The position numbers were made by a program, and so were the translations under genes. Below the pieces are notes generated by a model. That model had not been told where the DNA came from. It worked only from the letters and a program-made list of their open reading frames with translations, and searched no databases. 64,000 bases of DNA from Mobula hypostoma (taxonomy: Eukaryota), in the NCBI RefSeq assembly GCF_963921235.1, contig NC_086108.1, positions 86,182,001-86,246,000 on the forward strand, written 5' to 3'. Shown in pieces: positions 12,945 to 54,202 of this stretch (position 1 is its first letter; every line of letters starts with the position of its first letter).

Positions 12945-14393
12945 AAAGGCAATGATAATCCTAGTGCCGAAGAAGAGCAAGGTGGCATGCCTGAATGACT
13001 ATCGGCCTGTGGCTCTGACATCAATTGCTATGAAGTGCTTCGAGAGATTGGTTATGGCACACATCAACCACAGCCTACTGGTCAACCAGGACACCTTGCA
13101 ATTCGCCTACCGGAGCAACTGGTCAACGGCAGATGCCATCTCTTTGGCCCTACATTCCTCCTTAGAACACCTGGAGAATAAAGACGCATACGTAAGGCTC
13201 CTCTTCATTGACTACAGCTCTGCCTTTAATACCATCATTCCAAGTAAACTGATTCCTAAGCTCTGGAACCTGAGTTTAGCACTCAGATCTGCAGCTGGAT
13301 CTTCAACTTCCTCACAGATAGGACCCAGGCTGTAAAAATAGGGGACAAGCTCTCCTCTACAATCACTCTGAGCACCGGTGCCCCACAAGGCTGTGTACTC
13401 AGCCCCCTGCTGTACTCACTGTACACCCATGATTGTGTAGCCAAGTTTCCATCAAACTCAATATATAAGTTTGCTGATGACACAACAATTGTAGGCCGTA
13501 TCTTGGGTAATGATGAGTTTGAGTACAGAGAGGAAATTAAGAACCTGGTGGCATGGTGTGAAGACAATAACCTATCCCTCAACGTCAGCAAGACAAAGGA
13601 ATTGGTTGTTGACTTCAGAAGGAGTAGCGGACATCGGTGGTGTGCAAGTGGAACAGGTCAAAAGCTTTAAGTTCCTCGGGGTCAATATCACAAATGACCT
13701 GACTTGGTCCAACCAAGCAGAGTTCACTGCCAAGAAGGCCCACCAGCGCCTTTACTTCCTGAGAAAACTAAAGAAATTTGGCCTGTCCCCTAAAACCCTC
13801 ACTAATTTTTATAGATGCACCGTAGAAAGCATTCTTCTGGGGTGCATCACAACCTGGTATGGAAGTTGTCCTGTCCAAGACCAGAAGAAGCTGTAGAAGA
13901 TCATGAACACGGTGCAGCACATCACACAAACCAATCTTCCATCCTTGGACTCACTTTACACCACACGCTGTTGGAGCAGTGCTGCCAGGATAATCAAGGA
14001 CACGACCCACCCAGCCAACACACTTTTCATCCCTCTTCCCTCTGGGAGAAGGCTCAGGAGCTTGAAGACTCGTACGACCAGATTTGGGAACAGCTTCTTT
14101 CCAACTGTGATAAGACTGCTGAACGGATCCTGACCCAGATCTGGGCCGTACCCTCCAAATATCCGGACCTGCCTCTCGGTTTTTTTGCTCTCCTTTACTT
14201 TCCATTTTTCTATTTTCTATTTATGATTTATAATTTAAAATTTTAATATTTACTAATTTTTCCTATTTCTAATATTTTTAATATTTAATATTTGTAATCC
14301 AGGGAGTGGAAAGCACAGAATCAAATATTGCTGTGCTGATTGTATGTTCTAGTATCAATTGTTTGGAGACAATAAAGTATAAAGTATGAAGTA
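12945..14393 (+). mobile_element. Rex1/Babar LINE, 5'-truncated, frameshifted
   Basis: [47 protein letters not shown] and LPSGRR motifs. The tail is AATAAAGTATAAAGTAT. Confidence 0.9.
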
Positions 14394-14809
14394 TATATTA
14401 AGTTTCATCATTGGAGTAGACGCACTGGATGGAGAAAGTGGAAGAGTGGAATGGAAAACAGAACGGAAGTAGATATAATTGAGATAGCTGTAGGTGTTGG
14501 GGGATCTTCTAATGGAATTTGGTTTCTACCCTATCCCCTTAGATAAAAATAAATATGTCAGAATTGGGAAGGAAATAGTTAGCTCTGGATCATGTAAACT
14601 TAGGGCTAGGTGGAAAATGAGAGTTTAGGCAATGACTTTTATTTCAATTCTGTAAGAATGTAGGAAACAGTGGCAATGCAGAATGGGGAAGGAGCTGAGG
14701 GAAGGAGTTTGAATAGGACTGAAATAAACACAGTTCCATCAATGCATAAGAAGGCAGGCTTAGCCTGGGCTTTTGTGAATTTTAAATGGAAAACATGTGA
14801 ATAAGTTCA

Positions 14810-15209
14810 CAAACACAAGGAATTCTGTGGATGCTGGAAATTCAAGCAACACACATCAAAGTTGTTGGTGAACGCAGCAGGCCAGGCAGCAACCCTAGGA
14901 AGCGGTACAGTCGACATTTCGGGCCGAGACCCTTCGTCAGGACTAACTGAAAGAAGAGCTAGTAAGAGATTTGAAAGTGGGAGGGGGAGGGGGAAATCCA
15001 AAATGATAGGAGAAGACAGGAGGGGGAGGGATGGAGCTAAGAGCTGGACCGTTGATTAGCAAAAGGGATATGAGAGGATTATGGGACACGGGGGGGGGAG
15101 GTGGGGCATTAGCGGAGGTTTGAGAAGTCAATGTTCATGCCATCAGGTTGGAGGCTACCCAGACAGAATATAAAATGTTGTTCCTCCAACCTGAGTGTGG
15201 CTTCATCCA
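14810..15209 (-). mobile_element. Younger Penelope-like element 3' end (GIY-YIG C-terminus + pLTR)
   Basis: The minus strand encodes DEATLRLEEQHFIFCLGSLQPDGMNIDFSN. A 12-bp TSD TGAATAAGTTCA lies at 14798-14809 and 15210-15221. Confidence 0.85.
14907..14947 (-). ncRNA. Minimal type I hammerhead ribozyme motif
   Basis: Minus strand reads UUAGUC-CUGACGA-A-GGGU(CUCG)GCCC-GAAA-U-GUC-GACUGU. The core boxes, stem II and stem I (AGUC/GACU) are present; stem III is minimal. Confidence 0.75.
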
Positions 15210-15471
15210 TGAATAAGTTCATTGGCTTAAGAAAGCCTTCTTCAAGTGAAGGAGACCTGGTTAGGTGTCCTTTCAAGAAGGAAGAGAAGGAGCCTCAGTC
15301 TACACTGGTGCAGGATGAAGGTTATGGAGTCATTGAGCACAGAAACAGTTTTTTTGCCCCAAATGATCCATGCGAACCAAAATTCCTATCTAAGATAGTC
15401 CCAATGGCCTGTGTTTGGCTCATATCTCTCTCTTTTCCTATTCATGCATCTTCCCAAACACCAATTAAATG

Positions 15472-16205
15472 TTCAAAGGTTCAAAGGTCCAATTTAATGT
15501 CAGAGAAATGTATACAATATACATCCTGAAATGGCTTTTCTTCACAAACATCCACAAAACAGAGGAGTGCCCCAAAGAATGAATGACAGTTTAACGTGAG
15601 AACCCCAAAGTTCCCCCCAGCTCCCCCCTCCTGCACATAAACAGGAGTGAGCAACAATCCCTCCTCCCCACCCACTGGCAAAAAAAAGCAAAGCATTGGC
15701 ACTGCCACCGAGCACTCAGGCGTGAACAAAGCAATAGGAAAGAAACAGACTTGCAGTTACCCCAAAGACTTGGTGTTTCTCCTGGCATTCAACATACCAC
15801 AGGTTCTCTCTGGCCATATAAGGGAGAAGGAGGTGTTTCCATTTTCCCAGCGAGCAGGGTGATATTACAAACAACTCTTTGGTTTACTATGTTAAAAGTC
15901 CGTTACGTCGCTTTTATGAGCTCTGTGCCTGAAGATTGCAAAGATCTCAGGTCTTCGGGCACACAGCAGTAGATTTTCTGATTCCCTTGATGACACACAG
16001 GTCTCCTGCCGTGACACCGACCCTTGATCCGCCCGTCTCCAGAGCCCTGTGATCTTAGGCTTCCAAATCTAAACCGGACTCTCAGGCCTTCAAAACAACC
16101 CTGAAAGTGAAAAATAAAGGTATTAAAGATGGAAATAGAGCTGTTTCCAAAGATGCAAGCAAAAGAGTTGCTGTTTAGCGCCAGCTTAACTTCGCTTCGC
16201 CTTCC
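15472..16205 (-). mobile_element. Non-autonomous retroelement (no ORF; LINE-like tail) inserted in a CR1 3' fragment spanning ~15325-16380
   Basis: Homologous to 34480-35342. The tail is CCTTTGAA repeats and the 5' end is GGAAGGCGAAGCGAAGTTAAGCTGGCGC. Confidence 0.6.
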
Positions 16206-18967
16206 AAAGTTAATGTTGATGTACCTGCCTCAATTATTTTCTCTAGCAGCTCATTCCATAGACTGAAACTTCTCTATGTGAAAGTGTTGATCCTTAGGAT
16301 CCTATTAAATCTCCCCCCTGTCATATTAACCCTATGTCCTTTAAGTTCTTAGTTCCCCAACCCTGTGAAAAAGACTGTGCATAAACTCTAACTATATGTG
16401 TAGAGGATTCAATGTCCATGGTGAAAATGGCAGCAAAAAATTATAAAAATAGTGTTGGGTAACAGAGTTTCATGGACGTATGAGGGAAGTGACTGGGCAC
16501 AGGAAGGTAGGAAGGAAAAATTATGTTCTGAGACAAGTCCACCAGGACAGTTCTGCCTCTGGTTCTTGGAAAGAAACTTAAAGCTAGTTGCTCCCAGATA
16601 GAGGGCTGTATGGGCTGGCCATGGAGGAATTAAAATAAGGGGCAAAAAACATCTAACTGGAATGAGTTAACGACAGTGGAAGGAGCCAAACCAGATGTCT
16701 TTGTTTTTGCCATGTAGTTGAAAGAATGGTGGTTGCCATTTTGTGAAACTGCTTTCCAGTCTCCATTTTATGAAATATCTTGTGAATTGTTTTTTCTCAG
16801 GAATAGCTGTATCAAGGCAGTTTAAAGTGGACCCAATAAGGATCATGATAATCTGCTGAACTAGAGATTATTTCCAAATATAAAGTTATTAGTGATATGT
16901 TCTTTGTTAAGATAGAACATACAAGGTTATCAATAGGGCAGTCTGTATCTGACCTGAGTAACCCAATACTAAGAATTGGTTGATCTGCTCTGATTCAGAA
17001 CAAAGACACGTTAATTACAAGTTGTTAGAAGGGCAGTAAATGATGCTGGCTTAGACCAGAGCCGATGGAAAACTGACACAAATTAGCCAGGTAGACCAGA
17101 GCCAATGACATTGAAACACAGCACGTGAATAGATAACGAAATATTAATATTAATGCAGGTCTTCCAATTCAAAGCAGTAAGAATGCTGGAAACTAATTAT
17201 TACAAGGAAGACAACCCCACCCTCCCCATGCCCAGGGCTGGGAGAAGGATCAATTGATTGGCCAATGGGAGATCCCCTATTTCTGTGTTATAAATAGAAG
17301 TTATCTGTGTGTATAATGGAAGTAGAACTCATGTTTTAAATTGTTGGCCTGGGATCAATATAGTTACATTGATATTGGGCAGAAACAATAAAGTGCAAGA
17401 TTTGACTTAATTAACAATTGTGTAGTGAAATGTCTAACCTAGATCAGTTGATAATAGGTCAAGTTGAGGCTGGAAGCTATGGAGGCAGGTTTTCCAGAGA
17501 AAATGAGATCAGTGGTTCTTGGGGAGACAGTGGCCCAGAAGGAGGTATGAAGCAATGATTTTTGACTTTTGTGATATATAGGTCAATTCAACAAACCTCA
17601 ACAGCACTGCCCTTAGCAGTAGGTTTCTGATGATATTGGGTTGAATGTGCAGAGTGCTGCAAGATAGGAAGATCAGAGTGAATAACAGCAATGGGAAAAC
17701 TGGCATGGTCAATACTCTGTTGAGAGCTAGTGATGAATGGACTTACAGAAAGTAAGAGGATCAGAATTTATTGAGGCAGGAGAAAGTATATGCAGTCAGA
17801 ATGGAGAATCCTGGTCAAAGAAATGGACAGGGAGCTGAAGACAGCTGAAGAAAATAACAATATCATATTGAACTCGGAACTCATTACGTTGGGGCCATGG
17901 AGAGGTAAAGCCGAGGCCTCTGCTAAGCATTCAGAATAAGACAGAGCATGATCAAAAGGCATAGTGAAAGCATAGCTGGGCATGGAACTGGCAGAGAGAT
18001 GAGGTCAGAGGAAAGCAAAGGAGAAGAAGGAATCAGAAGAGTAATAGAGTTCACGAGTCATTAAAGTTGGTGAGCTTTGATGCCTGGAAAGAAGAAAACA
18101 AGATTATTTTTGTGAAGAAATGTTGACTGTGGAAAAGTGCAGAGGTGGGCCAAGACAACCTTGACATACAGTGAGTCCAGGCAGTGGGAGTGAGAAGCAA
18201 AGAACATGCATATGTTGGCACATGGCATTAAGAATGGATCTCAGGATATTTTGAGATCAGTGATTAGAGAACCACTGGAGAGTTTGAACATACAGTATCT
18301 GCCACTGTGGATCCATCTAAAATGTTCAGATTGAAATTTCAGCTGGAAGCTATGTTGAATAAGTTGAAACTAAAGACATTTAAGAAAATTATACAAGGTC
18401 CTTGTCTTGTAGTGTCAGGCTGTTGCTTGTCTTTAGATGCGACTTGACCTGCTGAGTGCTTCCAGCATTTCTGTTTGGTTCGCCTTGGCCTTCACTTCTC
18501 ATGAAACATTAACAGAGGCATATTGAACAGTCACTCAGCTTTTATAGCATTAGCTTCAACAGTTTCAGATCATGACCTTTCTCCCCACAGACTGTGATAT
18601 AACTAACAGTAGTGATCACTGGTCTGGCACAAATGTTTTGTGTCTCCGTGCTGTTGTTCTGGATCTTTATTTAAAAAAAAAATCAAAGTGTCTTTCAAAG
18701 CCCTATTGTATAGCAGCAACAAATTTGTCGGGATTTTCTTTCACCTTAAAAGTTATTAATTTTACAAGTGACCTCGAGAAAATATCTATTCTGGGGAATG
18801 TTGACCCCATCAATAACAAATTAAGTTCTCTTTGTTTGTCTTGTTAAAGAGATGTCAAGGTTCATTGAAGTACTTCTGATTTTTTAAATATCATTGATTA
18901 GATTGTTTGTTCTTCATAGTTTTTACTTACATTTGCTTTTCATTGATTTTAATGAACACAAGAATTA

Positions 18968-20695
18968 TAAGAAACATAGGAACATAGAAAACCTACAGCA
19001 CAATACAGGCCCTTCAGCCCACAATGTTGTGCCGAACATGTCCCTACCTTAGAAATTACTAGGCTTATCCATAGACCTCTATTTTTCTAAGCTCCACGTA
19101 CTTATCCAAAAGTCTTTTAAGCAGTGGTCCCCAATCACTGGGCCGCGAAGCATGCAGGGGTGCAGTGGTGGCCGGGACGCACCCAGCACATCTTTAAGGA
19201 AAAAGCATAAATAAACAAGCTAATTAATTAGGTGCTGCTTGGCACATAAATGTCGGCCAGATCAGAGGTGATTGCCAATTCCATAGAGCAAGTGAAATCG
19301 GCAATCGCTTCTGATCTGGGCTGACATTTACATGTCGGGCGGCACCTAATTAATTAGCTTGTTTATTTTGGCTTTTTTCTTAAAAATGTGCTGGGTGCGT
19401 CCCGGCTACCACTGCAACACTATATGCTTCGCAGCCAGGTATCGTTCCGCGGCCCGGAGGTTGGGGACCACTGTCTTAAAAGACCCTATCATATCCGCCT
19501 CCACCACTGTTGCCGGCAGCCCATTCCATGCACTCACTACTCTCTGAGTAAAAAATTTACCCCTGACATCTTCTCTGTACCTACTCCCCAGCACCTTAAA
19601 CCTGTGTCCTCTTGTGGCAACCATTTCAGCCCTGGGAAAAAATCTCTGATTATCCGCACAATCAATGCCTCTCATCATCTTATACACCCCTATCAGGTCA
19701 CCTCTCATCCTCCGTCGCTCCAAGGAGAAAAGGTCAAGTTCACTCAACCTATTTTCATAAGGCATGCTCTCTAATCCAGGCAACATCCTTGTAAATCTCC
19801 TCTTCACCCTTTCTATGGCTTCCAAATCCTTCCTGTAGTGAGACGAACAGAACTGAGCACAGTACTCCAAGTGGGGTCTGACCAGAGTCCTATATAGCTG
19901 CAACATTACCTCTCAGCTGCTAAGTTCAGTTCCATGGTTAACGAAGGCTAATACACCGTATGCCTTCTTAACCACAGAGTCAACCTGCGCAGCTGTTTTG
20001 AGCATGCTATGGACTCAGACCCCAAGATCCCTCTGATCCTCCACACTGCCAAGAGTCTTACCATTAATACTATATTCTGCAATCATATTTGACCTACCAA
20101 AATGAACCACTTCACATTTATCTGGGTTGAACTCCATCTGCAACTTCTCAGCCCAGTTTTGCATCCTATCAATGTCCGGTTGTAACTTCTGACAGCCCTC
20201 CACACTATCCACAATACATCCAACCTTTGTGTCATCAGCAAACTTACTAACCTATCCCTCCATTTCCTCATCCAGGTCATTTATAAAAATCACGAAGAGA
20301 AGGGGTCCCAGAGCAGAGCCCTGAGGCACACCACTGCTCACCGACCTCCATGCAGAATATGACCTGTCTACAACCACTCTTTGCCTTCTGTGGGCAAGCC
20401 AGTTCTGGATCCACAAAGCAATGTCCCCTTGGATCCCATGCCTCCTTACTTTCTCAATAAACCTTGGCATGGGGTACCTTGTCAAATGCCTTACTGAAAT
20501 CCATATACACTACATCTACTACTCTTCCTTCATCAATGTATTTAGTCACATCCTCAAAAAATTCAAATAGGCTTGTAAGGCACGACCAGCCCTTGACAAA
20601 GCCATGCTGACTATTCCTAATCATATTATACCTCTCCAAATGTTCATAAATCCTGCCTCTCAGGATCTTCTCCATCAATTTTACCAACCACTGAA
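18968..20695 (-). mobile_element. 5'-truncated CR1, same family as 1412-5583
   Basis: High nucleotide similarity to 1420-2770 with the same RT motifs. Interrupted by the MITE at 19122-19473. Confidence 0.92.
19122..19473. mobile_element. hAT/Charlie-type MITE with long internal palindrome
   Basis: TIRs CAGTGGTCCCCAA ... TTGGGGACCACTG with a degenerate TTAA-containing TSD. An internal inverted repeat spans ~19160-19415. Confidence 0.8.
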
Positions 20696-21024
20696 GCCTA
20701 CAGGTTCTCAAGCTTCAATAAATTTTAATCAAAAAGCAACTTTTCTTCTTCTTTTTCTGATGTCAGCCCATGTGTGACAAAATAGATTTAGTTCAAACAT
20801 ACTTGAAATAAGTTAAAACAAAATGTTTCTCCAAAATGATCTCTATGTCTGTGGGGGTGGCTCTCTGCAAAGGTTGCAGTCAACAGAAGGCTGATGAAAT
20901 GTAATCTCCACACCAAACTTTGAAAGTCACCATTGTTTTCAATTTCCAGAAACTTAGCAAGTTGTATTAGTTATATGGATAGATAAAGCTGCTATATTTC
21001 TATTATAGATTAATTATGTTGCAA

Positions 21025-21535
21025 GGTATTTGTCAGAGCACACTTGGACTATTGTGAGCAGTTTTGGGCCCCTTAACTAAGAAAGGATGTGCTGCCATTG
21101 GAGGCTATCCAGAGGAGTTTTACGAGAATGATCTTCAGAATGAAAGAGATAATGTATGAGAAGAGTTTGATGATTCTGGGCCTGTACTCAATAGTGTTTA
21201 GTAGAATGAGGGGGGATCTCATTGAAACCTCTTGAATATTGAAAGGCCTAGACAGAGTGGACATGGGGAGGATGTTTCCTGTCGTGGGCAAATCTCAAAA
21301 TAGAAGGATGTCCCCTTAGAACAGAGATGAGAAAGAATTTCTTTAGGCAGAGGATGGTGTACTGTGGAATTCAATGCCACAGATGGCTGTGGAGGCTAAG
21401 ACACTAGGTATATTTAAAGTGGTGGTTGATAGGTTCTTCATTAGTAAGAGCATGAGGAGAAGGCAGGATAATGAAATGGCAGAGCAGACTCAGTGGGCCA
21501 AATTGCCTAATTCTGCTCCTATGTCTTATGGTGCT
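21025..21535 (+). mobile_element. CR1 3' fragment
   Basis: HLDYCEQFWAP..RKD-type coding and a 3' end CCTAATTCTGCTCCTATGTCTTATGG. Confidence 0.8.
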
Positions 21536-21544
21536 ACATGAAAC

Positions 21545-21968
21545 TCAGAGTTATGTAGCACAGTAACAGTCCCTTCAGCCTATCAAATCCACATTGGCCA
21601 TCAAAAATCCACTCACCCTAATGCAGGGGTTCCCAACCTGGGATTCACTGACCCCTTGCTTGACGGCATCGGTCCATGGCTAAAAGCAGGTTGGGAATTC
21701 CTGCCCTAACGCTACACTATTCTATTTTCCTTCCTCACAGATAGTACCACTCAACTACATCAGGGGTGCAATCTACAGTGGTCATTAACTGACCACTTGC
21801 CTATCTTTGTGGTATGGGAGGAAGCCAGATATCCAAGGGAAATCCAAATCCAAGAAGTCACCAGTAGGATGTATTATCTCCACACAGGGAATACCAAAAG
21901 GATAGGAATAAACCCAAGGCACTGGAGCTCTGAGGCAGCTGTTCCACTAACTGTGGCACTGTTCCCCA
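21545..21968 (-). mobile_element. Degenerate tRNA-derived SINE (HE1/V-SINE-like)
   Basis: Similar to 54203-54478, with a tRNA-like head at the right end and a CR1-like tail at the left. Confidence 0.55.
21624..21703. mobile_element. 80-bp hAT MITE
   Basis: TIRs CAGGGGTTCCCAAC / GTTGGGAATTCCTG with an 8-bp TSD CCCTAATG / CCCTAACG. Confidence 0.85.
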
Positions 21969-22994
21969 TTGAATTGATTATAGAGGTGAAGACAAGAGTT
22001 ATCATTGGAATAAAACAAGGAAAGATGATGATATTGGCCATGAATCAGTAAATCCCCTGTAATATATGTTCATGAGGATTAAGGGGCAGAGTAGGTATGC
22101 ATAGAGTTGTGTGGTTAACATTGAGAAATTCTTCTAGGAGGCATGGATGCTGAAAATTTGAAAGAAACACTTAAAGCATAGCAGTTGTGCACTGGCGGTT
22201 GCCACTAACCCCAAGAAGATGGCTGCATTATTCTTTCTGCCTTGCTTACACTCCTGCCAAATGGGCTGATTTGTTGTGCCAACCCTTCAGACACAAAGCC
22301 TCAAAGCCAGGCAGCATGTTGATGATTGTTATTAAACATTCTGTTCACTGCTTGGAGTTCCTCCCGGCTTGGCAACAACAGATGATTGTTTCCACAGGAA
22401 TCCAACAAAATCAGCAGCTGAGGCGAAGCAGAAGGTTGGTCCAATGCAGCTCTCTCAGGGACAATTATTTCTGGCACTGCTGTTCAGTGCAGGAAAGCTG
22501 CTTCTACATTTAGAGAAGTATGGTACTTTTAATTTAATACAGCAGGTTCGATATTAAAATTTTCTGCATGCAATTGCTACTTAACTGCAACATGTGGAAT
22601 AATGACATTCCTCTGCTCAGCATATAATCAAATCAATTATCTGTTCAAAATAAACTATTCCAATTGTTTGGCCCCCACTGATATTCCAGATGCTTCATAC
22701 CTAAGAACAATGTTAATGCAAGGTTAAATCTTAGCAATTTAAAATATATGAATTATTTTGTTTCGTTGTATGTGACCTTTCGCCATTATGTTATGCAAGT
22801 TAATTTTTCAGTATGATTGTATAATGCTCAAGTGGGATAAGATTGTAAATCTAAATATTCGAATCATAGGGATAAAGGCTTGAGTAGATCTGGCACCTAG
22901 TTCGTTTATGTTTCTAACACCAGATCTGGCTGGAACATATCAATGTGTTGACTGTCATTCTGCTCTTCTGAAAATGCACACAACTCCATGATCT

Positions 22995-25110
22995 TACAAA
23001 GTACAAAGTAAATTTATTATTAAAGGACACATACGACACCATATACAGCTGTGAGATTCATTTTATTTCAGCCATACTCAGTAAATCCAAAAAACAATAG
23101 AATCAAGGAAAGACTGCATCCAACAGGATGCACAAGTAACCGATGCGAGAAAATCAACCGTGCAAATATAAAACAAAAAAAGATATAAGATATCATAATA
23201 ATAAATATCAAAAACATGAGATTAAGAGTCCTTGAAAGTGAGTCCGTAGATTGTGGAACAATTCAGCAAAGGGCAAATGAAGTTGAGAGAAGTGAGTGAA
23301 GTTATCCCACAGGTTCAAGAACCTGATCGTAGAGGAGGAATAACTCCTTAACCTAGTCGTGTGAGTCCTGAGGCTTCTGCACCTTTTTCCTGTTGGCAGC
23401 AGTGAGAAGAGAACATGACTTGGATGGTGGAGGTCCCTGATAATGGATGCTGCTTTCCTGTGACAAAGCTCGTGTAGATATACTCAATGGTGGGGAGGAC
23501 TTTACCCGTGATCGACTGGGCCATATCCACAAATTTTTGTAGGATCTTCCATTCAAGAGCATTGGTGTTTCCATACCAGTCTCTGATGCGGCCTGTCAAC
23601 ATATTCTTCACTACATATCTGTAGAAGTGTGTCAAAGTTTTAAATGTCATGCCAAATCTTTGCAAACTTCTAAGGAAGTAGCTGTGCTGTTGTGCTTTCT
23701 TCATAATGACACTTACATGCTGCGCCTCGGGCAGACCTTCTAAAATGGTAACACTGAGGAATTTCAAGCTGCTGACCCTCTCCACCTCTGATCCTCTAAT
23801 GAACACTGGCTCATCCACCTCTGGTTTCCTCCTCCTGAAGTCAATAATCAGCTCCTTGGTCTTGCTGACATTGGTTGGGAGAGTGTTGTTGTGGGACGAC
23901 TCAGCCTGATTCTCAATATCTCTCCTAAATGCTGATTCATCACTACCTTTGATTGGAACAACAGTGGAGTTATCAGCAAATTTAAATATGGCTTTGGAAC
24001 TGGCCTCAGCTACATGGTTATAAGTGTAAAGCAAGTAGAACAAGGGGCCAAGCACGTAGGCTTGTGGTAAACCTGTGCTGATGGAGATCATGGAGAAGGT
24101 GTTGTTGCCAATCCAAACTCAGTGGGGTCTGCAAGAGAAAAAGACGAGGATCCATTTGCACAAGGAGGTACAAAAGCCAAGGTTTTGAAGCTTATTGATA
24201 AGCTTTGAGGGAATGATGGTATTGTATCATCACTAACCACTTAATCACAGTGTATGTAAATGCTACTGTACGATAGTCCATGAGATAGGTTACCACGTGC
24301 TTCGTAGGCACCAGTGTAATTGAAGTCTGCTTGAAACAGGTGGGTAGCTCAGATACTAAAGTGAAAGGTTAAAGGTATCAGTGAACACTCCAGCCAGTTG
24401 ATCAGCACAGGTCTTCAGTACTCAGCCAGACACCCCGTCCGGGCTGGATGTTCACCCTCCTGAAGGATGTTCTCATGTTGGCCTCAAAGTCTGAAATCAC
24501 AGGGTCATCGGCATCTGTGGGAGTTTGTGAGGTTCCTACATGCTTTGACGATCAATGTGAGCATAGTAGGCACTGAGCTCATCTGGAAGTGACGCCCTAT
24601 TGCCACCTATGCCACTCGATTTCACTTTGTAAGAGGTTATAAATTGCATTCAAACCCCGCCACAGCTGTTGAGCATCTTCAGGAATTCAAGTTTAGTGGA
24701 AATTGCCACTTCACCCATGAGATGGCTTTCCAGAGATTGTACCTGAACCTGTGTATCTTACTTGGTCAACAGCCCTGAATGTTTCTGATCTGCCCCTCAG
24801 TAGACTGCGGATCTCATGTTTCATCCAGGGCTTCTGGTTGGGAAATCTCTGAATAGGGACACACTTATCTATGACTGTTTTCATCAAGTATGTGACAACC
24901 TCTCAGGAGTCCATTCTCCATTCCTTTTTACCTCCACATTGCATCTATCACAGTCCACCAACTTGAAACAATCCCATAGCTCCCCCTGTGACCACCTCTT
25001 TGTTGTCCTCATTTCTAGAGCCTTGCTCTTTAGCCTCTTATCAAAAAGGCTCAGCAGAGGTTATACTTCTAATGCCAGCTCAGGAAGTACAACCTGCCTC
25101 AGGAGCTGCT
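22995..25110 (-). mobile_element. Rex1/Babar LINE fragment
   Basis: ORF 23348-24091 has TGLPQAYVLGP, KFADN and [14 protein letters not shown]. The tail AAAGTACAAAGTAAATTTATT lies at ~22998. Confidence 0.8.
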
Positions 25111-26640: not shown

Positions 26641-26921
26641 AGATCTTTCCTGCTTCTCATCTTTATGTAGCTTCTTGACAACATTATCCCCAGAAAGAAG
26701 CCATAGAGGTGAAATGTCACCTCTTTTCCTACATTCCGATCATTGACATGCTTGAATTAGACCTCTGTATATCAGTCTATGGGCTTTGCATTCTGTTGAT
26801 TCCAACTTTCAAAGCTTCCCTCCGACTTTGTTCCTCAATGCTGACTGTTCCTTCAATGAAGTAGTCTCCACACTCTGGAGTTCCCTTCCCTCTGCCTCTC
26901 ATCTCCTTTTATTGTCTTTCA

Positions 26922-27281
26922 GCTGAGTCCTGGGCTCAGCTGGCTCCGGCTGACAGCACCTGGTATGGGCCCCTATACAGGGTTATGGATCCCACTGCCT
27001 CGTGGATATCTTCAGGAGAAGAGAAGGCTGAGGAGTAAACCCTACACAAATCCAGAGTGGACCCCCTAAGGCGGTTGGACGACATATCATGTCACCTCGC
27101 GGCAGTTCCTGCAGCCAAGCTGATGCCAAATGTACCACTTCGCATTCCTTTGGACCACATCCGTGAGGCCGAGAGGGGGACCTTGATGTCTGGGCAGCTC
27201 AGGATCTCCATATTTATCACCTAGGTCTGCGTCCCAGAACGGGCGCATCCACTGTCTACTTAGACAGAGCCATGATATGAC
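26922..27281 (+). mobile_element. Bipartite non-autonomous RTE element (LINE 5'UTR fused to LINE 3' end)
   Basis: 26930-27235 matches the reverse complement of ~51940-52260. 27236-27273 (GGGCGCATCCACTGTCTACTTAGACAGA) matches the reverse complement of ~47738-47775. A 10-bp TSD TTGTCTTTCA lies at 26912-26921 and 27282-27291. Confidence 0.9.
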
Positions 27282-28518
27282 TTGTCTTTCATCAAATTCA
27301 AGCATCTCTGGCTCTGCATTCATTTAAACTTTAGAGACTCATCTAGGGCATTTTTCAATGACTAACTGATATTTTCATAGACATCAGAGAGTTGTATGCT
27401 GTCCAGACACAAAATAACTAAAGTCTTTCCAAATGGAAATTCACTGATGGGTTGTCACCATTGCAAGCTGTTAATGGCAGAACAAAGAATAAAATGTAGA
27501 ATTTCTGAGGAGTGTGACACACTTTGTTGCTGGAGGTGAAAGCAGAGATGTTCGTGTATTTTGAGGGAAATGGTACTTGAAGAGAGGCAGAAGCAGGACT
27601 ACGGAGAAAATGGGATTCATTTTGTAATTTCATAATGAGCATCTGGGCACAGCACAATGGAGCAATGGCATGATAAGCTGGCTCTTGCCATTGGAAAGTG
27701 TTTCTAAATCAATATAATCCTGAAGAAAAGATTACTATATAGCTACTACCAATTATTTTGACAGCCTTAAGTGTCTACATATTTCTGCATCTAACTGTCT
27801 GAGGTTAGCCAACCTCATATGTTAATTATCTGGCCCCAGAGCTATGAATCACAGGTTCTAGCCCTGCTGTAGGACCAAAACAGATAAGCTGCACTGATAC
27901 TTCAAAACTAAGGGAAAGCTGTTATTAGAAGAGACATTTCTTTGCTTAATTGCCCCCATCAACATTAGCTGGTTGTTCACTTGCGATTTTGTGAACCATA
28001 AATGAGAAGAGTACTTAGTTTTATCAATTGACACTACCAGCCATCATCAGCAAGATATCAGCTTCTAACTATTACATCATTATTGCATCTTTTGAATGAA
28101 CAATGGCATTAATTGTGGCTTTTCCTCCACCTGCAGCGTCAGGAATGCTCACTGGAAATGTCTCGTCTAGCTTTACTCCCACACAATGCCTGCAGCAGTT
28201 GCCATGTTCTAGAGAGATCACCTGTACAGATTTCTGGTGAAGCTGATGAATTATTATATATCAAGTGTCACAGGGGCACTGCACACTTGATTGCTTAACT
28301 CACCACGTCAGCACACTTTGATCTTACCAATAAAATAGTTCCGAGTCACAAATGTGTTTAATTCATGAAGAAAATATATGCATTAATGACAAGGCTAGTA
28401 TACGTGTAATCATCGTTCTAATCAACGCTGGCAGGAGAGCAGACGTCGATACAATTGAATTGCTTCCTGGGCCAAATCGGAGGCGTATTTAAAGTGGAAT
28501 TACATGACCTTGGTCAGG

Positions 28519-43167: not shown

Positions 43168-46100
43168 ATACAGGGTGAGAGCTTGCGGCAGTCGATGCGC
43201 AAGAGAAAATCTCTGGTGGACAGCCAGGCACAGTCCCCAGGCTGGAGTAGTCTGGCTGGGTGCCGATTGCAGTTAGCCTGGTGGTAGTAGGTGCAGTTGG
43301 CAGCTAGTGTGGTCCTCCATGCCCTCTTCCAAGCACTTTGTCATCGGTGAAGCAGGGACATAGCAGATTGGAACTCAACTATTGGCTACTCCACTGGGAG
43401 TACTGATGGTTAGTAGCCATGAAGAACATCAAAGCATGCCATACTTGTGGCACGGGGGAGGGGTGTAGATTGTGGGACAGTTCAGCCGAGAGCAACTATT
43501 TCTTCCACGTGGATGGGTTAGAGGGGGCAAAGCATCACAGAAACTTCTCCACGTGCTGGTTGGCTCTTTCTGACTGACAGCTGGACTGCCGATGATAGCC
43601 AGAGGACAAATTCACTGAGGTGCAGAGAAGGGAACAGAAGGCTCGCCAGATGCGGGAGATGAATTGTGGGCCCTGCATTGACTCAGTGTCCTGAGGGAAA
43701 CTGTGAGGGTGAGCTACGTGTTGAAGAACCAGGTTCGCCGTCTCAGTGGTCGACAGAACTTTGGGGAGGACAATGAAGTGGGCCTCCTTGGAGAACTGGT
43801 CCACCACTGTCATGATCAGTGGAAGGTGGCAAACCTGTGACGAAATCCATGGCGATGTGGAAGGATGGTTGTCGAGGGACTGATTGGAGCAGCAGTCGCC
43901 CAGAGGGCCACTGGTTGGATTAATTAGACTGGGCACATTGAGAAGCACTGTGCTGGCACACAGTACATCTGCGATCACCAGAACTGGCATTGCAGAAAAT
44001 CCAGGGTCTGTCGTATGCTTGGATGGCCAGAGAGGAGTGAGGATTGAGGAGTAAGCCTACTGGAGTGTCTCAGAGTGCATGGCCACCGGCACTTACATGT
44101 GGTCGACTAGAGCAGGCTCATTTGTAGGGCCTAGCGGATTTGGTTCTCAAGATCTCACATGATCAGGACATGGATCTGTGAGGTTGGAATGGTGGGCTGA
44201 GGTTTGATCTCCATTTCAGCTGCGTCGAACTGTTTTGTCAGTGCATCTCCCTTAGTGTGCTTGGAGTTGGGTCAGTAGGGGATGGCTGTTTTGTTTTGTA
44301 ACTCCTAAACATAAAACTAATTGAAAGAAAAGCAGGGAGCTGGGGGTAACGTGTATGTTTAGTTTTTATTTTTAGTGAGGCTTGCAGATATGGCATGATG
44401 GTGTAATGATGTATGCCATTCACATACTTTTACATAAAACCCATAATAAATTACGTAAACATCAAAGAATGCTTAATCAAATAATATTACTCAAATATTA
44501 CTGAAATATTAAATACACAATACTCCTCCTTGCTTACATATAAACTCCAGCTCAGTATAGAATGCATCTCACCTCAATTATGTAATGTATTGTTCTCTTG
44601 TCATGTTGTAGATATAACATATATTAAATACAACTTCTATATGTATAAGCATCCACAGCATAGTAACATTTAAATTGTCCCATTCAGTTGTCAAGTTTTA
44701 ATCACTCAGGAGGCTTTCTTACTCTTTGGGATAACATCTTTCCTACTTGGCAGGTGAGAGTTGTGTCGTTGAAACCATCTCAGGTTCTGGGGCCTCCTCC
44801 TGGGTTTTCTGCGATGTCAGTTCTGGTGTTGTAAGAGTTGACTCTGGCAATGCAGAAAGAGACTCTAACAGCTCTGGACAACATTCTTCTCTAATGATTG
44901 ACTCTGTTCTCCTCAACTGATTGATGTGTCGTCTCCAGATGACCTCGGGTGTAATCTCCACTGTGTTGGAGAGTGGTCCAGTTCTGTCTTTAATCTTTCC
45001 AGGCATCCATTTTGATCATCTCTGTAGTTCCCTCACGAGGACTGCTGGTCCAGGAGTGAAACATCGAATCTGCTTGTTTGAGAAGCCCTCAACTTATCTC
45101 AGCTGTTTGTCCTGAATACTCTTTCTGAGATTGGGTCTGAGCAGAGCACAAAGGATAACCATGAGCACAAGGGACAACCCAGGAACAGCATAGCTGGTGA
45201 GTCGTTGGTTGTAGAATGTGTTGCATGATGATATGCAAGGAAGAAATTGGCGAGCTTTTGATTCAGTGATGGTGATGTGTGTTCTGCTGATGTTGCTTGC
45301 AGTGTGTTGTTTAGACTTTGAACAAACCTTTCCATTGAGCCATTTGTAGCTGGGTGGTATGGTGTCAATATAATAAGTCTTAATCCGTTCATTTTCAGGA
45401 ACGACTGAAATTGTTGCACAACAAACTGTGGCCCATTGTCACTGACTAAGTATTCTGGAACACCAGTCCTTGAAAAGAGGCTTCTCAACATGACAACAGT
45501 TGAAAAGCTGCAGTGGAGGCTATTGAGAACACTTCTGGTCACCCTGTAGCTGCATCCATTATTACCAAGAAGTTTGTGCCCATCAATGGTCCAGCAAAAT
45601 CCACATGAATCCTCTGATACGGCAATGCAAGCCATTCCCAGGGATGACAAGACCCCTTTGCATCTCCTGGATGTGTTGGCATCACAGACAATGCGTAGTG
45701 AGCTGCTTGATCTGCTGGCTGATTTATCCCAGGCCACCAGACAAAGCTTTGAGCCAATTTTTTTCATCTTGAGCACACCTAGATGACTGGCATGTAGTTC
45801 CTCCAACACTTTAGCTCAACATCTCTCAATCCCCATAGAAGACAAACTTTGTTCAAGGGCAAATTCACCTTGGCACTGATAAAGATGGGGGAACTGGAGT
45901 TTTTGCTCCATGTTCCAGTAATTTTTGGGTGGCCGTGTAGACCTGAGACAGTGTGGGGTCTTTTCTGGTTTCCCTTTGGATCATCTCTGCTGTAATAAGA
46001 AGACTTTCAATTTGCATTGGGGAGAATACATTAAGAAGAGTGTCCTCTTTTGAAAATGTCTCATGTATTTCCTTTTCCAACAGTAAATGGGACAATCCAT

Positions 46101-47688: not shown

Positions 47689-47842
47689 GGGCAGAGGGTA
47701 TTGATCTACTTTCAGTACTGGGTTGCTAATAATAATAATGGCTCCATCTGTCTAAGTAGACAATGGATGCGCCCAGTTTAGGACTCAATTGGATGTGGAA
47801 CAGCGTCGGCTGTGGCTGAATAAGACGATTCTTGAGCAGCAG

Positions 47843-50800
47843 TCAGTCCTTGGCACAGCTGCAGCACACGAAGGCTGATGGCTGCGGCTGGGTAGTCACT
47901 GCCTCAGCTTTCCTTCTCTCTCTTCTATCCGACCACAGTCGAGTTCGTTTTTCCTCTGCATTGGTAATGCCTGTACTTACAGCCTGTCGCCAGGTGCAGC
48001 GATTTGCAGCTGTCTCTTCCCAAGTGTCCTCCCTGATATCAGCAGACTTCAGGTCACGTTTACAAACGTCCCTGTAGCACAGCAGTGGGCACCCTATGGG
48101 CCGGGATCCTGCGGCAAGTTCTCCGTATAGGATGTCCTCAGGGATACGGCGGACGTGGCCAAGCCAGCGCAGTCGTTGCTGTGTGAGAAGGTCACACATG
48201 CTTGGCATGCCGGCCTGGTCCAGGACGTCATTGTTTGGCACGCGGTATTTCCAGGAAATGCCCAGGATCGGACGCAAGCATCGTAGGTGGAAGCTGTTGA
48301 GACGGTGCTCTTGGCGCGCATAGGTTGTTCAACTCTCGCTGCTGTAGAGAAGAGTACTCAGTACGCTGGCTCTGTACACTGCAGTCTTGGTGGCTGTGGT
48401 GAGCTTCTTGTTTCTCCACACTCTCTTTGACAGCTTGGCCATAGCAGCGGCTTTCCCTATTCGCCTGTTGAGCTCTGGATCAAGGGACAGGTTGCTGGAG
48501 ACTGTCGATTTTAGGTAGGTGAATTCATCGACCGCTTGCAGGGTGTGGTTGCCGATGCTGATGGTGGGGGCTTCGCTGACGTCCTGGCCCATGATCTCTG
48601 TCTTCTTCGGACTGATGGTGAGGCCATACTCTTGGCAAGCATGTGCCAGGGAACTGACTAGCCTCTGGAGACCAGACTGTGTGTGTGACGTCAGGGCGGC
48701 ATCATCAGTAAAGAGTATCTTCCAAATCAGGACCTGACGCACTTTGTTCTTTGCTCTGAGGTGTGCAAGGTTGAAGAGCTTGCCGTTGGACCTAGTGTGT
48801 AGGTACACTCCGACATCAGATGTCCTGAAAGCGTACAACAGTACGAGGGAGAAGAAGATCCCGAAGAGCATCGGGGCAAGGATACAACCGTGCTTCACTC
48901 TGCTTTGGATGGGGAAGGGCTCTGAGGATGATCCATCGAATTGTACTGTCCCCTGCATGCCGTCATGGAAAGAGGCAATGAGATTTAGCAGCTTTGAAGG
49001 GCATCCGATCTTCTTCCAGAATGCAAAGAGGCCTCTCCTGCTACGCAGGTCAAAAGCCTTGGTTAGATCGATAAGGGCATCGTACAAAGGCTGTCTCTGT
49101 TCACGGCTCTTCTCCTGTAGCTGCCTGACTGAGAAGGTCATGTCGATGGTGTATCTCTCTGCTCTGAAGCCACACTGGGACTCAGGGTAGATACGTTCTG
49201 CCAGTGTCTGCAGTCGCTTCAGAACCACTTGGACAAACACCTTGCCAATGGTGTCGAGCAGGAATATGCCTCTGTAATTGTTACAGTCGTTGCAGTCTCC
49301 CTTATTCTTGAACAATGTGATGATGTTTGCGTCTCGTACGTCTTGAGGAACTGATTCCTCCTCCCGGCACTGGCAGAGCAGCTCGTGAAGATGGCTTAGG
49401 AGCACTGGTTTCCCGCACTGGATCACTTCTGCAGGGTTTTCGTCTTTGCCTGGTGCCCTGCTGTGAGCAGGCGAGTTGATAGCCTTGTTGAGTTCTTCCT
49501 CTGTTGGGGGTAGGTCCACCTCTTTCATGACTTCTTCAGGAATGCGACACAGAGCGTCATAGGAAGTCATTCCTGCCTGTGGCCATCAAACTTTACAACT
49601 CCTCCCTTGGAGGGTCAGACACCCTGAGCCAATAGGCTGGTCCTGGACTTATTTCCTGGCATAATATACATATTACTATTTAATTATTTATGGTTTTATT
49701 ACTATTTAATTAATTATGGTGCAACTGTAATGAAAACCAATTTCCTTAAGGATCAATAAAGTATGACTATGACTATGACAGGTAAAGCAGGGATACTGGC
49801 AAGGGCTGACTCAGTGACCAAGTTCTCAGTGGAGTACAGGTTCTGCTAGTGCCTGGCCCACCTCTCCACCTGCTTGGCACGGCCTTTGATGACTTCACTG
49901 TCCTTGGACTTGAACGGAGCGATCTTGCTAACGGTGGGCCTGAAGGCTTTCTTCATCCCCTCATACATGCCTTGTACATTGCCACTGTCGGCGCAGGTCT
50001 GGATGTTCTGGCACAGATTCTGCCAGTAGACAACTGCGCAGCGTCTAGCCGTCCTTTGAGTATTGTTTCTTGCCATTCTCAGTGCAGTGAGATTCTTTTC
50101 TGACGAGTCTCTTTTGTAGTTGATCAGAGCTTCTCTCCTGGTATCAATGACAGGTTCCATCTCAGACAGGTGAGATTCAAACCAGTCTTGGTTTTTCCTC
50201 TCCTTCTTCCTGAGGGATGACATGGCGGTGTTGTAGATGGTGCCACAAATGAATTGCCACCTCTCCTCCATGGTTGTGGCTGTATTTGCTTTGAAAGCCT
50301 GTTCCATTTGGTCGTTGGGTTTCGTGTGAAGTTCTGGGTTCGCTGCCTTGGCAGTGTTGATGTGTGGGCATCCTTTCTGCTTGGTGTGGTGGATCTTCTT
50401 TGGTTTCAGTCGGACTTTGCTGCCCACCATGGAATGGTCCATGACGCAGTCTGCACTGTGTAAGCTGCGTGTTAGAAGCACACTGTTGAGGGCAGCTCTT
50501 CTGGTGATGATCATGTCCAGCTGATGCCAGTGTCCGGACCTTGGGTGGCTCTAGGAGACTTTCTGGTGAGGTTTGTCTTGAGGAACGTGTTGGTGATGCA
50601 CAGCTTGCAATAGGAGCAAAACTCCAGCAGTCTCTGGCCGTTGTCGTTCATCTTGCCAAAGCTGAAGTGTTCGAGGCAGTCTGGCCATGAGCTGTGGTCA
50701 GATCTGACTCTAGCATTGAAATCACCAAGCAGAGTGATGTGTGCAGATTCTGGTATTTTGCTGATGGTAGCATCAAGGTCCTCGTAAAACTGATCTTTTG

Positions 50801-51236
50801 TTTCTTGAGGTGAGCCCAGCATTGGAGCGTAGACACTCAGGATGTTCACTTTACCTTTAAAAGGCTGAGGGAAAGGATGCATTCTGCCGGTGGGAGGAAC
50901 TATCATGGATAGCAGGCTGTTCTTGACAGCAAGGCCGACGCCATGTAGTTGGGGCTCCTCAGCTGGTCGGCCCTGCCAAAAAAAGGTATAGTTCCTCTCC
51001 CGCAGCACACCGTCTGCAGCGAGCCTGGTCTCTCGCAGTGCTGCTATGTCGATGTCCAGCACCCTCAGCTCAGAGTCAGTGATCACTGTTTTCCTGCTGT
51101 CGTTGATCTGCTGCGGGTCGTCTGAGAGGCCAGGGCACATGGTCCTAACGTTCCAGGTGGCCAGTCGCAGGACTGGTGGTTTCTTCTTTCTTCTCTGCGG
51201 TTTGCCTGGTGCAGTGATAGCCATCTGCTTTTCCAT
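47843..51236 (-). pseudogene. RTE endonuclease-reverse transcriptase, frameshifted and interrupted
   Basis: LATWNVRTM, VYAP, GDFNARV, NYRGI.LL, PESQCGFR, IDLTKAFD, LFTDD, FTYL and RLRWLGHVRR appear in four ORF pieces. Confidence 0.92.
49561..49779 (+). mobile_element. Rex1/Babar-type 3' end inserted in the RTE ORF
   Basis: AT-rich insert beginning RKSFLPVAIKLYNS and ending AATAAAG(TATGAC)3. Confidence 0.8.
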
Positions 51237-51456
51237 GCAAATCTAAGCTCCAAGCACCCACTGAAGCAGACAGACAGTGGCGAATCAGCACCCAATTGTC
51301 CGGGGGCTGCCTGGATTGAGGTGGGCGATAGCTGATCAGTCAGATGCAGTGACCTCTCCCACCGTCGGAGGCAACCTGTAGTGCCCGTAACCTACGCCAA
51401 TCAGGTTGGACTTATAGCTCGTAACTGCTGCCTCCTGTTTTGGTTTTTCTGCTTTG

Positions 51457-51959
51457 CAGCGGCACCGGAGTGGCCTCCCCGGGACGCAGACCTGGGTGAC
51501 CCCAGCGGCACCGGAGTGGCCTCCCCGGGGCGCAGACCTGGGTGACCCCAGCGGCACCGGAGTGTCCTCCCCGGGGCGCAGACCTGGGTGACCCCAGCGG
51601 CACCGGAGTGTCCTCCCCGGGGCGCAGACCTGGGTGACCCCAGCGGCACCGGAGTGGCCTCCCCGGGGCACAGACCTGGGTGACCCCAGCGGCACCGGAG
51701 TGTCCTCCCCGGGGCACAGACCTCGGTGACCCCAGCGGCACCGGAGTGGCCTCCCCGGGGCACAGACCTGGGTGACCCCAGCGGCACCGGAGTGTCCTCC
51801 CCGGGGCGCAGACCTGGGTGACCCCAGCGGCACCGGAGTGGCCTCCCCGGGGCGCAGACCTGGGTGACCCCAACGGCACCGGAGTGGCCTCCCCGGGGCA
51901 CAGACCTGGGTGACCCCAGCGGCACCGGAGTGACCTCCCCAGGACGCAGAGCTGGGCGA
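51457..51959. repeat. 46-bp GC/CpG-rich tandem array (10 full units + 1 partial) in the RTE 5'UTR
   Basis: Unit GCGGCACCGGAGTG(G/T)CCTCCCCGGGGC(G/A)CAGACCTGGGTGACCCCA starts at 51459, 51505, 51551 ... 51919. Confidence 0.97.
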
Positions 51960-54202
51960 TGAATATGGAAATCCTGGGCTGCCCAAACATCAAGATCCCC
52001 CTCTCGGCCTCTCCCTCTCGACCACGGATGTGGTCCAAAGGAATGCAAAGCAGTACATTTGGCATCGGCTTGGCTGCAGGAGCTGCCAGGAGGTGATGTG
52101 ATACATCATCCAACCGCCTTAGGGGATCCACTCTGGATTTGTGTAGGGTTTACTCCTCAGCCTTCTCTTCTCCCGAAGATACCCACAAACCAGTGGGGAC
52201 CCGTAACCCAGGATAGGGGCCCATACTAGGTACTGTCAGCCGGCGCCAGCTGAGCCCAGAACTTGTGTAAGGCAGGGTCATCACGCCCTGTAGTAGTGAC
52301 ATGTGGAGCTACTACCCACTACCCAAACTGGGTTGATGGTGTCCTTAGAACCACCACAGATCCTGACAGACCAATATTTCTTCAGTACTGGGACCACTGG
52401 CATTGCCTTTGGGCCCCATTCAACCTTGGAAAGGATTCCTTCACCCGCCATATGATTTAGCTCACTGATTAAATTGTCATGAATAGTTTAAGGAACCGAT
52501 GGGTTTTGCAAAAATTGGGTGTGGCATTTTAACTTAGCACTATTTTACCCTTGGTATGTTTGAATTTTCCAGTGCCATCCTTAAAAACTGCTGTGGCATC
52601 ATCCAGTACCTTTCTTAATTCATTTTCAGTTGACTCTTTTGTGGGGGATGTGGCATGTAAATAGTGAATGGATCTTCAATCAAGTTGTAGTTGTCTCAGC
52701 AGTCACAGCCCCACAACATTGGCCCTCCTGTTTTTATCACGCACAAGCCCAATGTGTCTTGTTGGTTGTTGTAATTCACTATTATGAATGTCATTCCCAC
52801 AGGAGTTATCTTTTCTCCAGTGTAAGTTCTTTCTTAGTTGAATATCTTCAGACTTCAGTTCGATGTATTTGAAATGCTGCTCAATTTCATTTTGAGGAAT
52901 GACTGAAATAGCCAAGCCAGGGTCCAATTCCATCTTAATTAGTTTGCCATTTACTTCTGGTGTAAGCAATATTGCTTGTCTCCTATTAGCTTTCACATTG
53001 TAAATCTCAAGGCTTTATCAGATTTTTCATCAACAGCATGCAGATTAGTACTCTTTTAGAAAATGCAACTTGACTTTTTATCTTTTTCTCTTCCCTTAAC
53101 AGTCCATTCATTTTTGTCTGCCCGATATGCTCTTTGTATATGTCCTACTTTATTGCATTTTCTGCAAGTTTCATCTTTAAATTTGCATTGGTTTGGTGTA
53201 TGTGAGCCCCTACCGCAGCAGTCATGTAATTTATCCAGCCACGCAGGCTCTTTATATTGTGCAATTTAGTTCATGCTCACTTATGTTCCCGCTTGCAATT
53301 CATCTGCAACTCTGGCTGCTGTTTCCATGGACGCAACAATTTCAATTGCCCTTTTAATTGTGAGTTGTGCTCAGTCAGGAGCTGTTTTTGAATGCTTTCT
53401 TGTAAGATTCCACAAACTTAATGATCTCTCAGTGCATCATTAAGCCCATCACTGAACTGACAATAGTCAGACAATTTCTTCAGTTCAGCCATGTACACTG
53501 AAATGGACTCCCCTTCCTTTTGATTCTGCTAATGAAACCTAAAGCATTCTGTAATCAACAATGGTTTCAGTTCTAAATGTTCCTGTATTACCTTCATGAT
53601 ATCATCAATGCTCATTTTGGCTTGTTTGGTTGGCACAGAGACACATTCAAGCAAAATGAATGGTCTTCCATCAACTGCACTCAGCAAAAATGGCACTCAT
53701 TTCTTATTGGCTATTTCATTTGTTTCCAAATACTACTTCAAAATATTGTTTAGTATACAATATCCATTTATCTCCAGTGAAATCCAACATCCCTATCTTT
53801 CCAACGTAGCCAGGTATTTCTGCTTTTTCTTAAATTTACATTCATTATCACCCCCAGTAATCATTATGAACCCATGAAATTCTTCCATTTTCAGCATTTT
53901 TTTAAACTGGACCAACTCTGTCCTTTTCCAAAGAGACACTTGCTGCACTTTTGTTTAATTCAACCATCTCTCTCCACTTGAAAACCAAAAACGCACTGAG
54001 CTTCAACAGAAAGGTGGCCATCTTGGATTTGTTTTAAAACTCACTCATTGCCACTGTTATGTTTTGTAACTCCAAAGCATAAAACTGGAAGAAAATCGCA
54101 GAGCTGAGGATTATGTATATGTTTAGTTTTCACTTTTAGCAAGGTGTGATGCGGTGGTGCAATGATGTACGCCATTCATGTAATTTTACAAATAATATGA
54201 AC

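Follow-up and report, generated by a model that had tools for sequence, protein, structure and literature searches.

Described bipartite derivatives of RTE LINEs

LINEs of the RTE clade harbor a single ORF with an APE endonuclease and a reverse transcriptase (RT), a short 3'UTR, and a microsatellite tail. Target-primed reverse transcription from the 3' end is established for stringent LINEs. That RTE clades also yield bipartite 5'+3' non-autonomous elements, as stated in the initial annotation of our locus, is equally well established: the part of Kojima (2018, PMC5786205) covered here catalogues the headless families RTE-N1_Lch, RTE-N2_Lch, RTESINE1/2, MAR4_MD, WALLSI3, and Bov-A, which share a 5'UTR piece, a 3' tip of 40–70 nt, and a microsatellite tail and possess neither an ORF nor a Pol III head, so that an element of this kind is not new as such. 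The AviRTE SINEs ManaSINE1/2, GymnSINE, BuceSINE, and MeloSINE (Suh 2016, PMC4844689, covered in part) arose repeatedly after horizontal invasion and are bipartite as well, with a 5'UTR part and 3'UTR tails of ~40 nt, but they differ from our element in carrying heads (tRNA, 5S, GC-rich, 28S) and in their unrelated sequence. As an insertion signature of RTEs, the covered part of Nishiyama and Ohshima (2018, PMC6007223) describes a duplication that begins with T and follows a T stretch at a distance of ~10 nt.

The window, i.e., the whole 64-kb stretch of DNA analysed here, contains a full-length RTE-type LINE together with a short element. Judged from its sequence, the latter is another headless bipartite RTE derivative of the established class, for which a Repbase or Dfam entry outside our comparison possibly exists. 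As in the RTE-N or Bov-A type, an ORF-less 5'UTR part is followed by a 3' tip with a microsatellite tail, insertion occurred as a unit with target-site duplications, and the join recurs in contigs of other loci. In comparison with the headless families in PMC5786205 (in part), our element is of separate origin and of another RTE lineage, and its copy in the window lacks the extreme 5' end that they usually keep; while RTE-N2_Lch is composed of 214 + 70 bp, ours comprises ~312 + 35–45 bp. Among the named LINE segments compared, the closest was positions 134–237 of the 5'UTR of RTE-12_AMi from alligator (PMC5786205, in part), by eye the same domain as 27010–27110, a likeness that covers 104 nt only.

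Literature searches, with Repbase, Dfam, and key older papers outside their scope, surfaced neither 5'–3' pairing in RTE LINEs nor a catalogue entry for this family. In the parts of the sources covered, PMC5786205 made no mention of a 5'–3' helix across the join, and no statement on 5'–3' pairing was found in PMC13295347 and PMC7245038. The broader point would be the 5'–3' helix rule at which the element hints rather than the element itself, as such a rule offers a testable handle on the open question of two-ended RTE derivatives.

Anatomy of the short element

The element comprises 360 bp (26922–27281) between exact 10-bp direct repeats, for which the rough chance is 2e-4, and its previously annotated extent (26912–27291), length, and repeats were confirmed (Table 1). 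Alignment with the minus strand of the RTE resulted in 275/322 identities (85.4%, E 2e-105) between 26926–27234 and 52263–51942, and in 35/41 (85%, E 1e-7) between 27228–27268 and the 3' tip at 47787–47747, in agreement with the proposed composition of ~305 bp from the 5'UTR and ~40 bp from the 3' end. The join had been placed at a GTCC microhomology inside the first 46-bp unit of the LINE; this position is tied for best, though two others score equally (breakpoints after 27233, 27234, and 27237 all reach 35 against that unit). In three runs, the majority letters were C at 27232 (81–94% of depth) and G at 27236 (65–79%), which are those of the 46-bp unit and are not assignable to short or long copies, the contigs possibly including full-length LINEs. 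Splicing as cause of the interior loss was rejected, since no GT-AG was present at the three candidate joins, nor by eye across the GTCC slide.

Table 1. Coordinates of the short element, of the RTE copy in the window, and of complementary arms in published parent LINEs (the latter by eye from PMC5786205, in part)
Feature	Position	Strand	Remarks
Left target-site duplication, 10 bp	26912..26921	+	single copy at the empty site of organism I
Four non-RTE letters	26922..26925	+	precede the start of the RTE match
5'UTR-derived part (RTE 52263 to ~51939)	26926..27237	+	without the first ~63 nt of the RTE
Predicted join-spanning stem, 5' arm	27228..27234	+	taken from the first 46-bp unit; ends in the GTCC microhomology (4 letters)
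Predicted stem loop, 6 nt	27235..27240	+	5'/3' join inside it or at its edge
Predicted join-spanning stem, 3' arm	27241..27247	+	from the RTE 3' tip
RTE 3'-tip-derived part	27238..27271	+	terminal hairpin 27252–27257 / 27262–27267; 4 nt absent after 27268
ATG-type microsatellite tail, short, decayed	27272..27281	+	from the letters and run X9
Right target-site duplication, 10 bp	27282..27291	+	exact repeat of 26912–26921
Full-length dead RTE-type LINE, parent subfamily	47726..52326	-	9-bp direct repeats 47717–47725 and 52327–52335
3' arm in the RTE 3' tip	47768..47774	-	complementary to the unit arm ~4.1 kb upstream
Single endonuclease and RT ORF in three pieces	47846..51140	-	51140–50574, 50574–49774, 49540–47846; frameshift and ~230-bp insertion
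46-bp tandem array in the RTE 5'UTR, 10.9 units, GC-rich	51457..51956	-	each unit with a 5' arm
RTE-3_AMi arms	282–290 with 3855–3863		9 bp
RTE-1_PSi arms	177–185 with 3726–3734		9 bp; one pair swapped compared with RTE-3_AMi
BovB arms	812–821 with 3797–3806		10 bp; one pair swapped in BOVA2
RTE-4_PPo arms			6 bp
RTE-11_AMi arms			5 bp

At the 5' end, the stretch 26920–26927, which includes the four extra letters and the last two of the duplication, is the exact reverse complement of 26935–26942, and 26922–26925 were likely filled in by fold-back where the 5' end was truncated. The RTE itself has another 5' junction of fold-back-like type: its initial letters can pair with its target duplication as a 5-bp inverted repeat (52321–52334). 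Sequence of the RTE 5' terminus beyond 26925 was carried by at least 7, 11, and 6 contigs of three runs among the loose ends listed, unphased with the join. By its letters, the window element is a decayed copy, 5'-truncated by ~63 nt. The terminal 3' hairpin, with a z of -3.2 in the RTE and a stem invariant in 4/4 aligned ends, has lost 4 nt in the window element that are kept in contigs of a related run. Alignment with the ends of L001 (an intact relative, see below) and L002 likewise places this part at the extreme 3' end of the LINE.

Folding of the whole element brought no gain over shuffles (z 0.09), and neither the 5'UTR alone nor the 5' 127 nt (z 1.47) folded better than shuffles. Pairing of 26927–26936 with 27196–27205 (RTE 52262–52253 with 51980–51971) would give a stem of 9–10 bp closing the retained 5'UTR domain, and the 5' truncation of the element coincides with its outer end.

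No tRNA was detected between 26000 and 28000, no Rfam family matched in the window at gathering score, and the element revealed no plus-strand Pol III A or B box. A ribozyme head, known from other RTE elements as HDV-like or twister, was not indicated by Rfam matches up to E 10 apart from two chance lncRNA matches, a search that a decayed or variant ribozyme could escape. The proposal of a SINE-like family without a tRNA head was upheld, on a truncated copy and with its join present at other loci; the window copy, itself truncated, is not to be read as a SINE under the narrow definition, which asks for Pol III and a small-RNA head. In this one copy, the duplication begins with T, and a T4 run is found at -5 to -2 rather than at -10.

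The parent subfamily

Profile search of the RTE revealed PF03372, PF00078, and, under its cut-off, PF14529, and the ORF pieces are colinear with the 1044-aa single ORF of a relative. With this anatomy and a 5'UTR resembling that of RTE-12_AMi, 47726–52326 is assigned to the RTE clade. An AT-rich insertion of ~230 bp (~49545–49775) breaks the ORF.

Between element and window RTE, 34 substitutions were counted at 309 sites, and the RTE contains a 12-bp insert that is absent from the element and from the relative L001; direct descent of the element from the copy at 47726–52326 was therefore rejected. As the LINE holds the run-majority letter at 18/25 listed places, the element must have decayed at 6% of sites or more. 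At 5/25 places both share the minority (derived) letter, at least two of these being non-CpG with the majority letter in L001, and because of these letters, polarised by L001, element and window RTE belong to one subfamily. Mobilisation by this RTE, as previously put forward, hence holds at the level of the subfamily, but the element does not descend from this particular copy. Nor can it mark the minimal cis-sequences, as had been suggested: with a truncated 5' end, decay at that level, and part of the terminal hairpin lost, these cannot be defined from the window copy.

L001 is an intact RTE on a metagenome contig (protein P0001 cluster) with 75–77% nucleotide identity over the length of the window RTE. 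Both have in common the 5' start motif, the 5'UTR domain, the 46-bp unit, the 3' hairpin, and the complementary arms, while L001 differs in its single 46-bp unit, its intact ORF, its first ~120 nt, and its tail repeat; on these grounds it is a relative and not the parent. The nine internal units of the window array differ by 1.6/46 letters with variants mostly shared. Because of this near-identity and the one unit in L001 compared with 10.9 here, the array is likely a minisatellite that expanded locally within the LINE after insertion, and the earlier remark that it is dispensable says little.

The search for relatives with both ends led to eight metagenome loci, of which only L001 had both ends close enough, whereas viral contigs contained one distant locus and genome contigs 14 loci that were fragments or distant, none of these being added to the covariation test. 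The 3'-tip pattern had 0 matches in metagenome contigs. The best protein relatives reached 70–75%, and those that bear a name came from marine invertebrates. Two tiny contigs in bacterial assemblies (L010, 1–609; L014, 1–389) carry RT pieces 73–78% identical to P0001 and probably represent contamination with animal DNA.

Insertion site and the join at other loci

Contigs of four sequencing runs (of 24 listed) were aligned on 26760–27450. One contig of organism I (depth 4.9), on which this empty site rests, links 26886 to 27282 via 34 letters of plain flank and contains one copy of the 10-mer without the element. The site is filled in organism C, where contig 25 goes from the flank to 26953. 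Since organism I has a single 10-mer and no element, the 10-bp repeats are a true target-site duplication, and the claim that the element inserted as a unit was substantiated. Insertion most likely postdates the split from organism I and predates the one from organism C. The element, found in organisms A and C and not in I, is usable as a presence/absence marker.

At least three non-orthologous contigs from three runs or organisms (32 pieces listed of 2451 aligned) span the join with ~11% differences, namely X1 #7 (27145–27268; 13 differences, 2 gaps, depth 8.8), X11 #16 (14 differences, 3 gaps, depth 53), and X9 #30 (20 differences, 1 gap), while the contigs of the window locus itself revealed 0 differences. 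One of the three comes from the window's own species. Each has 31 letters past the join at 27237, just meeting the 31-letter rule, and flanks or duplications lie outside their reach. As non-orthologous contigs cross it, the join is not unique to this locus, which contradicts the outcome that the initial annotation had named as fatal to a family. A one-off deletion at this locus, for which the absence of a second copy from the 64-kb window (comparison of the whole window) could be cited, is thereby largely refuted and has practically no probability left, the ~11% differences occurring in three runs and once in the same species.

The family-specific 5' part reached a summed depth of 13,873–24,650 compared with 10.9–12.6 in the flanks, and in run X1 depth dropped from 6675 at 27222 to 745 at 27236; these depths do not equal copy numbers, as the ends of full-length LINEs also contribute. 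Run X18 (organism I) had depth 0 over the family-specific stretches 26904–27023 and 27240–27263, compared with thousands in the three other runs, and its flanks are ~95% or more alike to the window. The whole RTE family may have entered after the split of organism I, which would fit horizontal transfer, with the reservation that contigs prove presence, not absence.

A second repeat family shares 27096–27212 of the 5'UTR and ends in a GAT-type tail where the homologue of the 5' arm starts. It was found in at least 41, 23, and 15 contigs of three runs among the loose ends listed, with another continuation in organism I, and is possibly a short element built of the 5'UTR only, without the LINE 3' tip.

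A predicted stem across the join

Folding predicted a 7-bp stem with one G-U pair, to which each end of the LINE contributes one arm, and after it the terminal hairpin. The join sits in the loop of this stem, a point absent from the initial annotation. Under a null of random 5'/3' joins, such a stem has a probability of 0.02 with one G-U allowed and of 0.008 with seven Watson-Crick pairs. In L001 both arms are changed at one pair (C-G to T-A) with pairing kept, a single compensatory change that would also be the outcome of two CpG decays. Of 3751 windows compared in L001, none paired better with the 3' arm than the homologous site; it ranked first in 7/20 arm definitions and had at most one better site in 16/20. 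The stem energy of -15.6 is ordinary compared with the best partners of 43 control 14-mers. For the window RTE, with its decayed first unit alone, 6–33 sites outrank the stem partner, and cofolding of the two ends chose other pairings and did not return the stem for either L001 or the window RTE.

Published elements were inspected by eye for at least five consecutive Watson-Crick pairs across the join (null 0.11 per element) in the supplementary S1 alignments of PMC5786205, as far as covered; these are informal counts by eye, and the cases are not independent of each other. Eight of 14 RTE5'-RTE3' SINEs pass this rule (~9 origin groups, 7 positive), namely CoeSINE4, HaSE2_DP, SINE2-1_PXu, WALLSI1, WALLSI1A, SINE2_Gav, SINE-1_Pmo, and SINE2-1_EC, the joins of HaSE2_DP, SINE2-1_PXu, and SINE-1_Pmo being loosely annotated. 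CoeSINE5, SINE2-1_PPo, SINE2-2_ACar (4 pairs), WALLSI2 (8 pairs with G-U), HaSE1, and HaSE3 fail it (6/14). Complementary arms were also seen in five of the six assessable parent LINEs of that source (Table 1), RTE1_LA being the exception. The AviRTE SINE consensuses (PMC4844689, in part) were looked up after the idea had formed: all three compared (6 entries, two origins) display 7, 7, and 5 pairs, their loosely annotated joins being deduced from the description in the paper. The loops of BovB and GymnSINE exceed the length that the null allowed.

Origin of the element

Taken together, we consider it rather probable that the window element is one copy, decayed and 5'-truncated, of a protein-free, multi-copy element of 5'UTR and 3' tip, copied by the LINE's enzymes and born by loss of the interior from the loop of a 5'–3' helix. 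Accordingly worded as a course of events, a LINE of the parent subfamily would have lost its interior, with the 5'UTR and the 3' tip remaining. The 5'–3' helix would form in the LINE RNA, and the founding deletion would fall within its loop, for which two options may be considered. Either the helix brings the ends together and steers a template jump, possibly aided by the 6-of-7-nt likeness around GTCC, or it is needed in cis, and deletions would multiply only where both arms had been kept. The short element would be transcribed from the LINE's own 5'UTR, presumably by Pol II, and copied in trans by the LINE endonuclease and RT via target-primed reverse transcription that starts at the 3' hairpin and tail. 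The window copy would then have been cut short at its 5' end during insertion, with fold-back filler placed there, and would have decayed afterwards.

The same family could also have been founded by plain microhomology or end-joining around GTCC, with the stem being incidental, which we regard as unlikely. GTCC is among the tied best breakpoints, and cofolding failed to pick the stem; moreover, element and window RTE share T at 27232/51944, and GTCC, with 6/7 letters alike, may have been present in the parent subfamily beforehand. Published joins likewise overlap by a few letters, e.g., at 49–56 in BOVA2 (PMC5786205, in part) and 226–231 in SINE1-1_EBu (PMC7245038, in part). However, the chance of the stem is only ~0.02, stems of other letters are met again in unrelated RTE lineages and, with compensatory swaps, in parent LINEs (in the sources as far as covered), and as two sequences that pair with one arm are alike, microhomology would be expected under a helix too. 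A quite improbable variant dispenses with a self-propagating family and lets short copies arise anew whenever, during copying of a full-length LINE RNA, the enzyme jumps from one side of the 5'–3' loop to the other at its base, i.e., at a deletion hotspot in cis. The stem would provide a fixed place for such repeated jumps, the net difference between the spanning contigs and the window copy is 1–2 letters, and GymnSINE and ManaSINE1 have the same arms with different breakpoints (PMC4844689, in part). On the other hand, multi-copy bipartite RTE families are well documented in the parts of the literature covered, and contig X11 #16 spans the join at a depth of 53, suggesting several near-identical copies.

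Finally, the bipartite body could be the remnant of a SINE with a head (tRNA, 5S, or other) whose copy in the window is 5'-truncated. Though truncation has removed the original 5' end from view and most published bipartite RTE bodies (in the sources as far as covered) belong to headed SINEs, the best-supported extension before 26925 is the RTE 5' end itself, in the contigs counted above and again unphased with the join, and we hold this origin to be very unlikely.

Going beyond this locus, the reading with a founding deletion in the helix loop can be extended to the clade, an extension that we offer tentatively and would rather doubt than assert. RTE-clade LINE RNAs may circularise where the 5'UTR pairs over a short helix with the beginning of the 3' tip. 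Compensatory changes would have preserved this helix in BovB, AviRTE, and the present lineage, and it could either belong to the signal for the RTE protein or hold the two ends close enough for the enzyme to leave out the interior. If true, the helix would supply the explanation hitherto missing for the repeated shedding of two-ended parasites by RTE LINEs and hardly any others, and for the need of their SINEs for both ends. A conserved helix kept by each successful deletion would provide a concrete, mutable cause from which breakpoints in further RTE derivatives could be predicted, and a LINE clade noted for horizontal transfer would gain a long-range RNA structure.

Other repeats in the window

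The RTE lies within a decayed Gypsy-like pol region (45102–45815 and the flanks of 47717–52335), with an integrase match of E 3e-6 below cut-off, while the RT-like flanks of the RTE were judged by eye from a motif. A fragment of another LINE is present twice in the window, at 1562–2771 and 19475–20696, the two being 90% alike over 1.2 kb.
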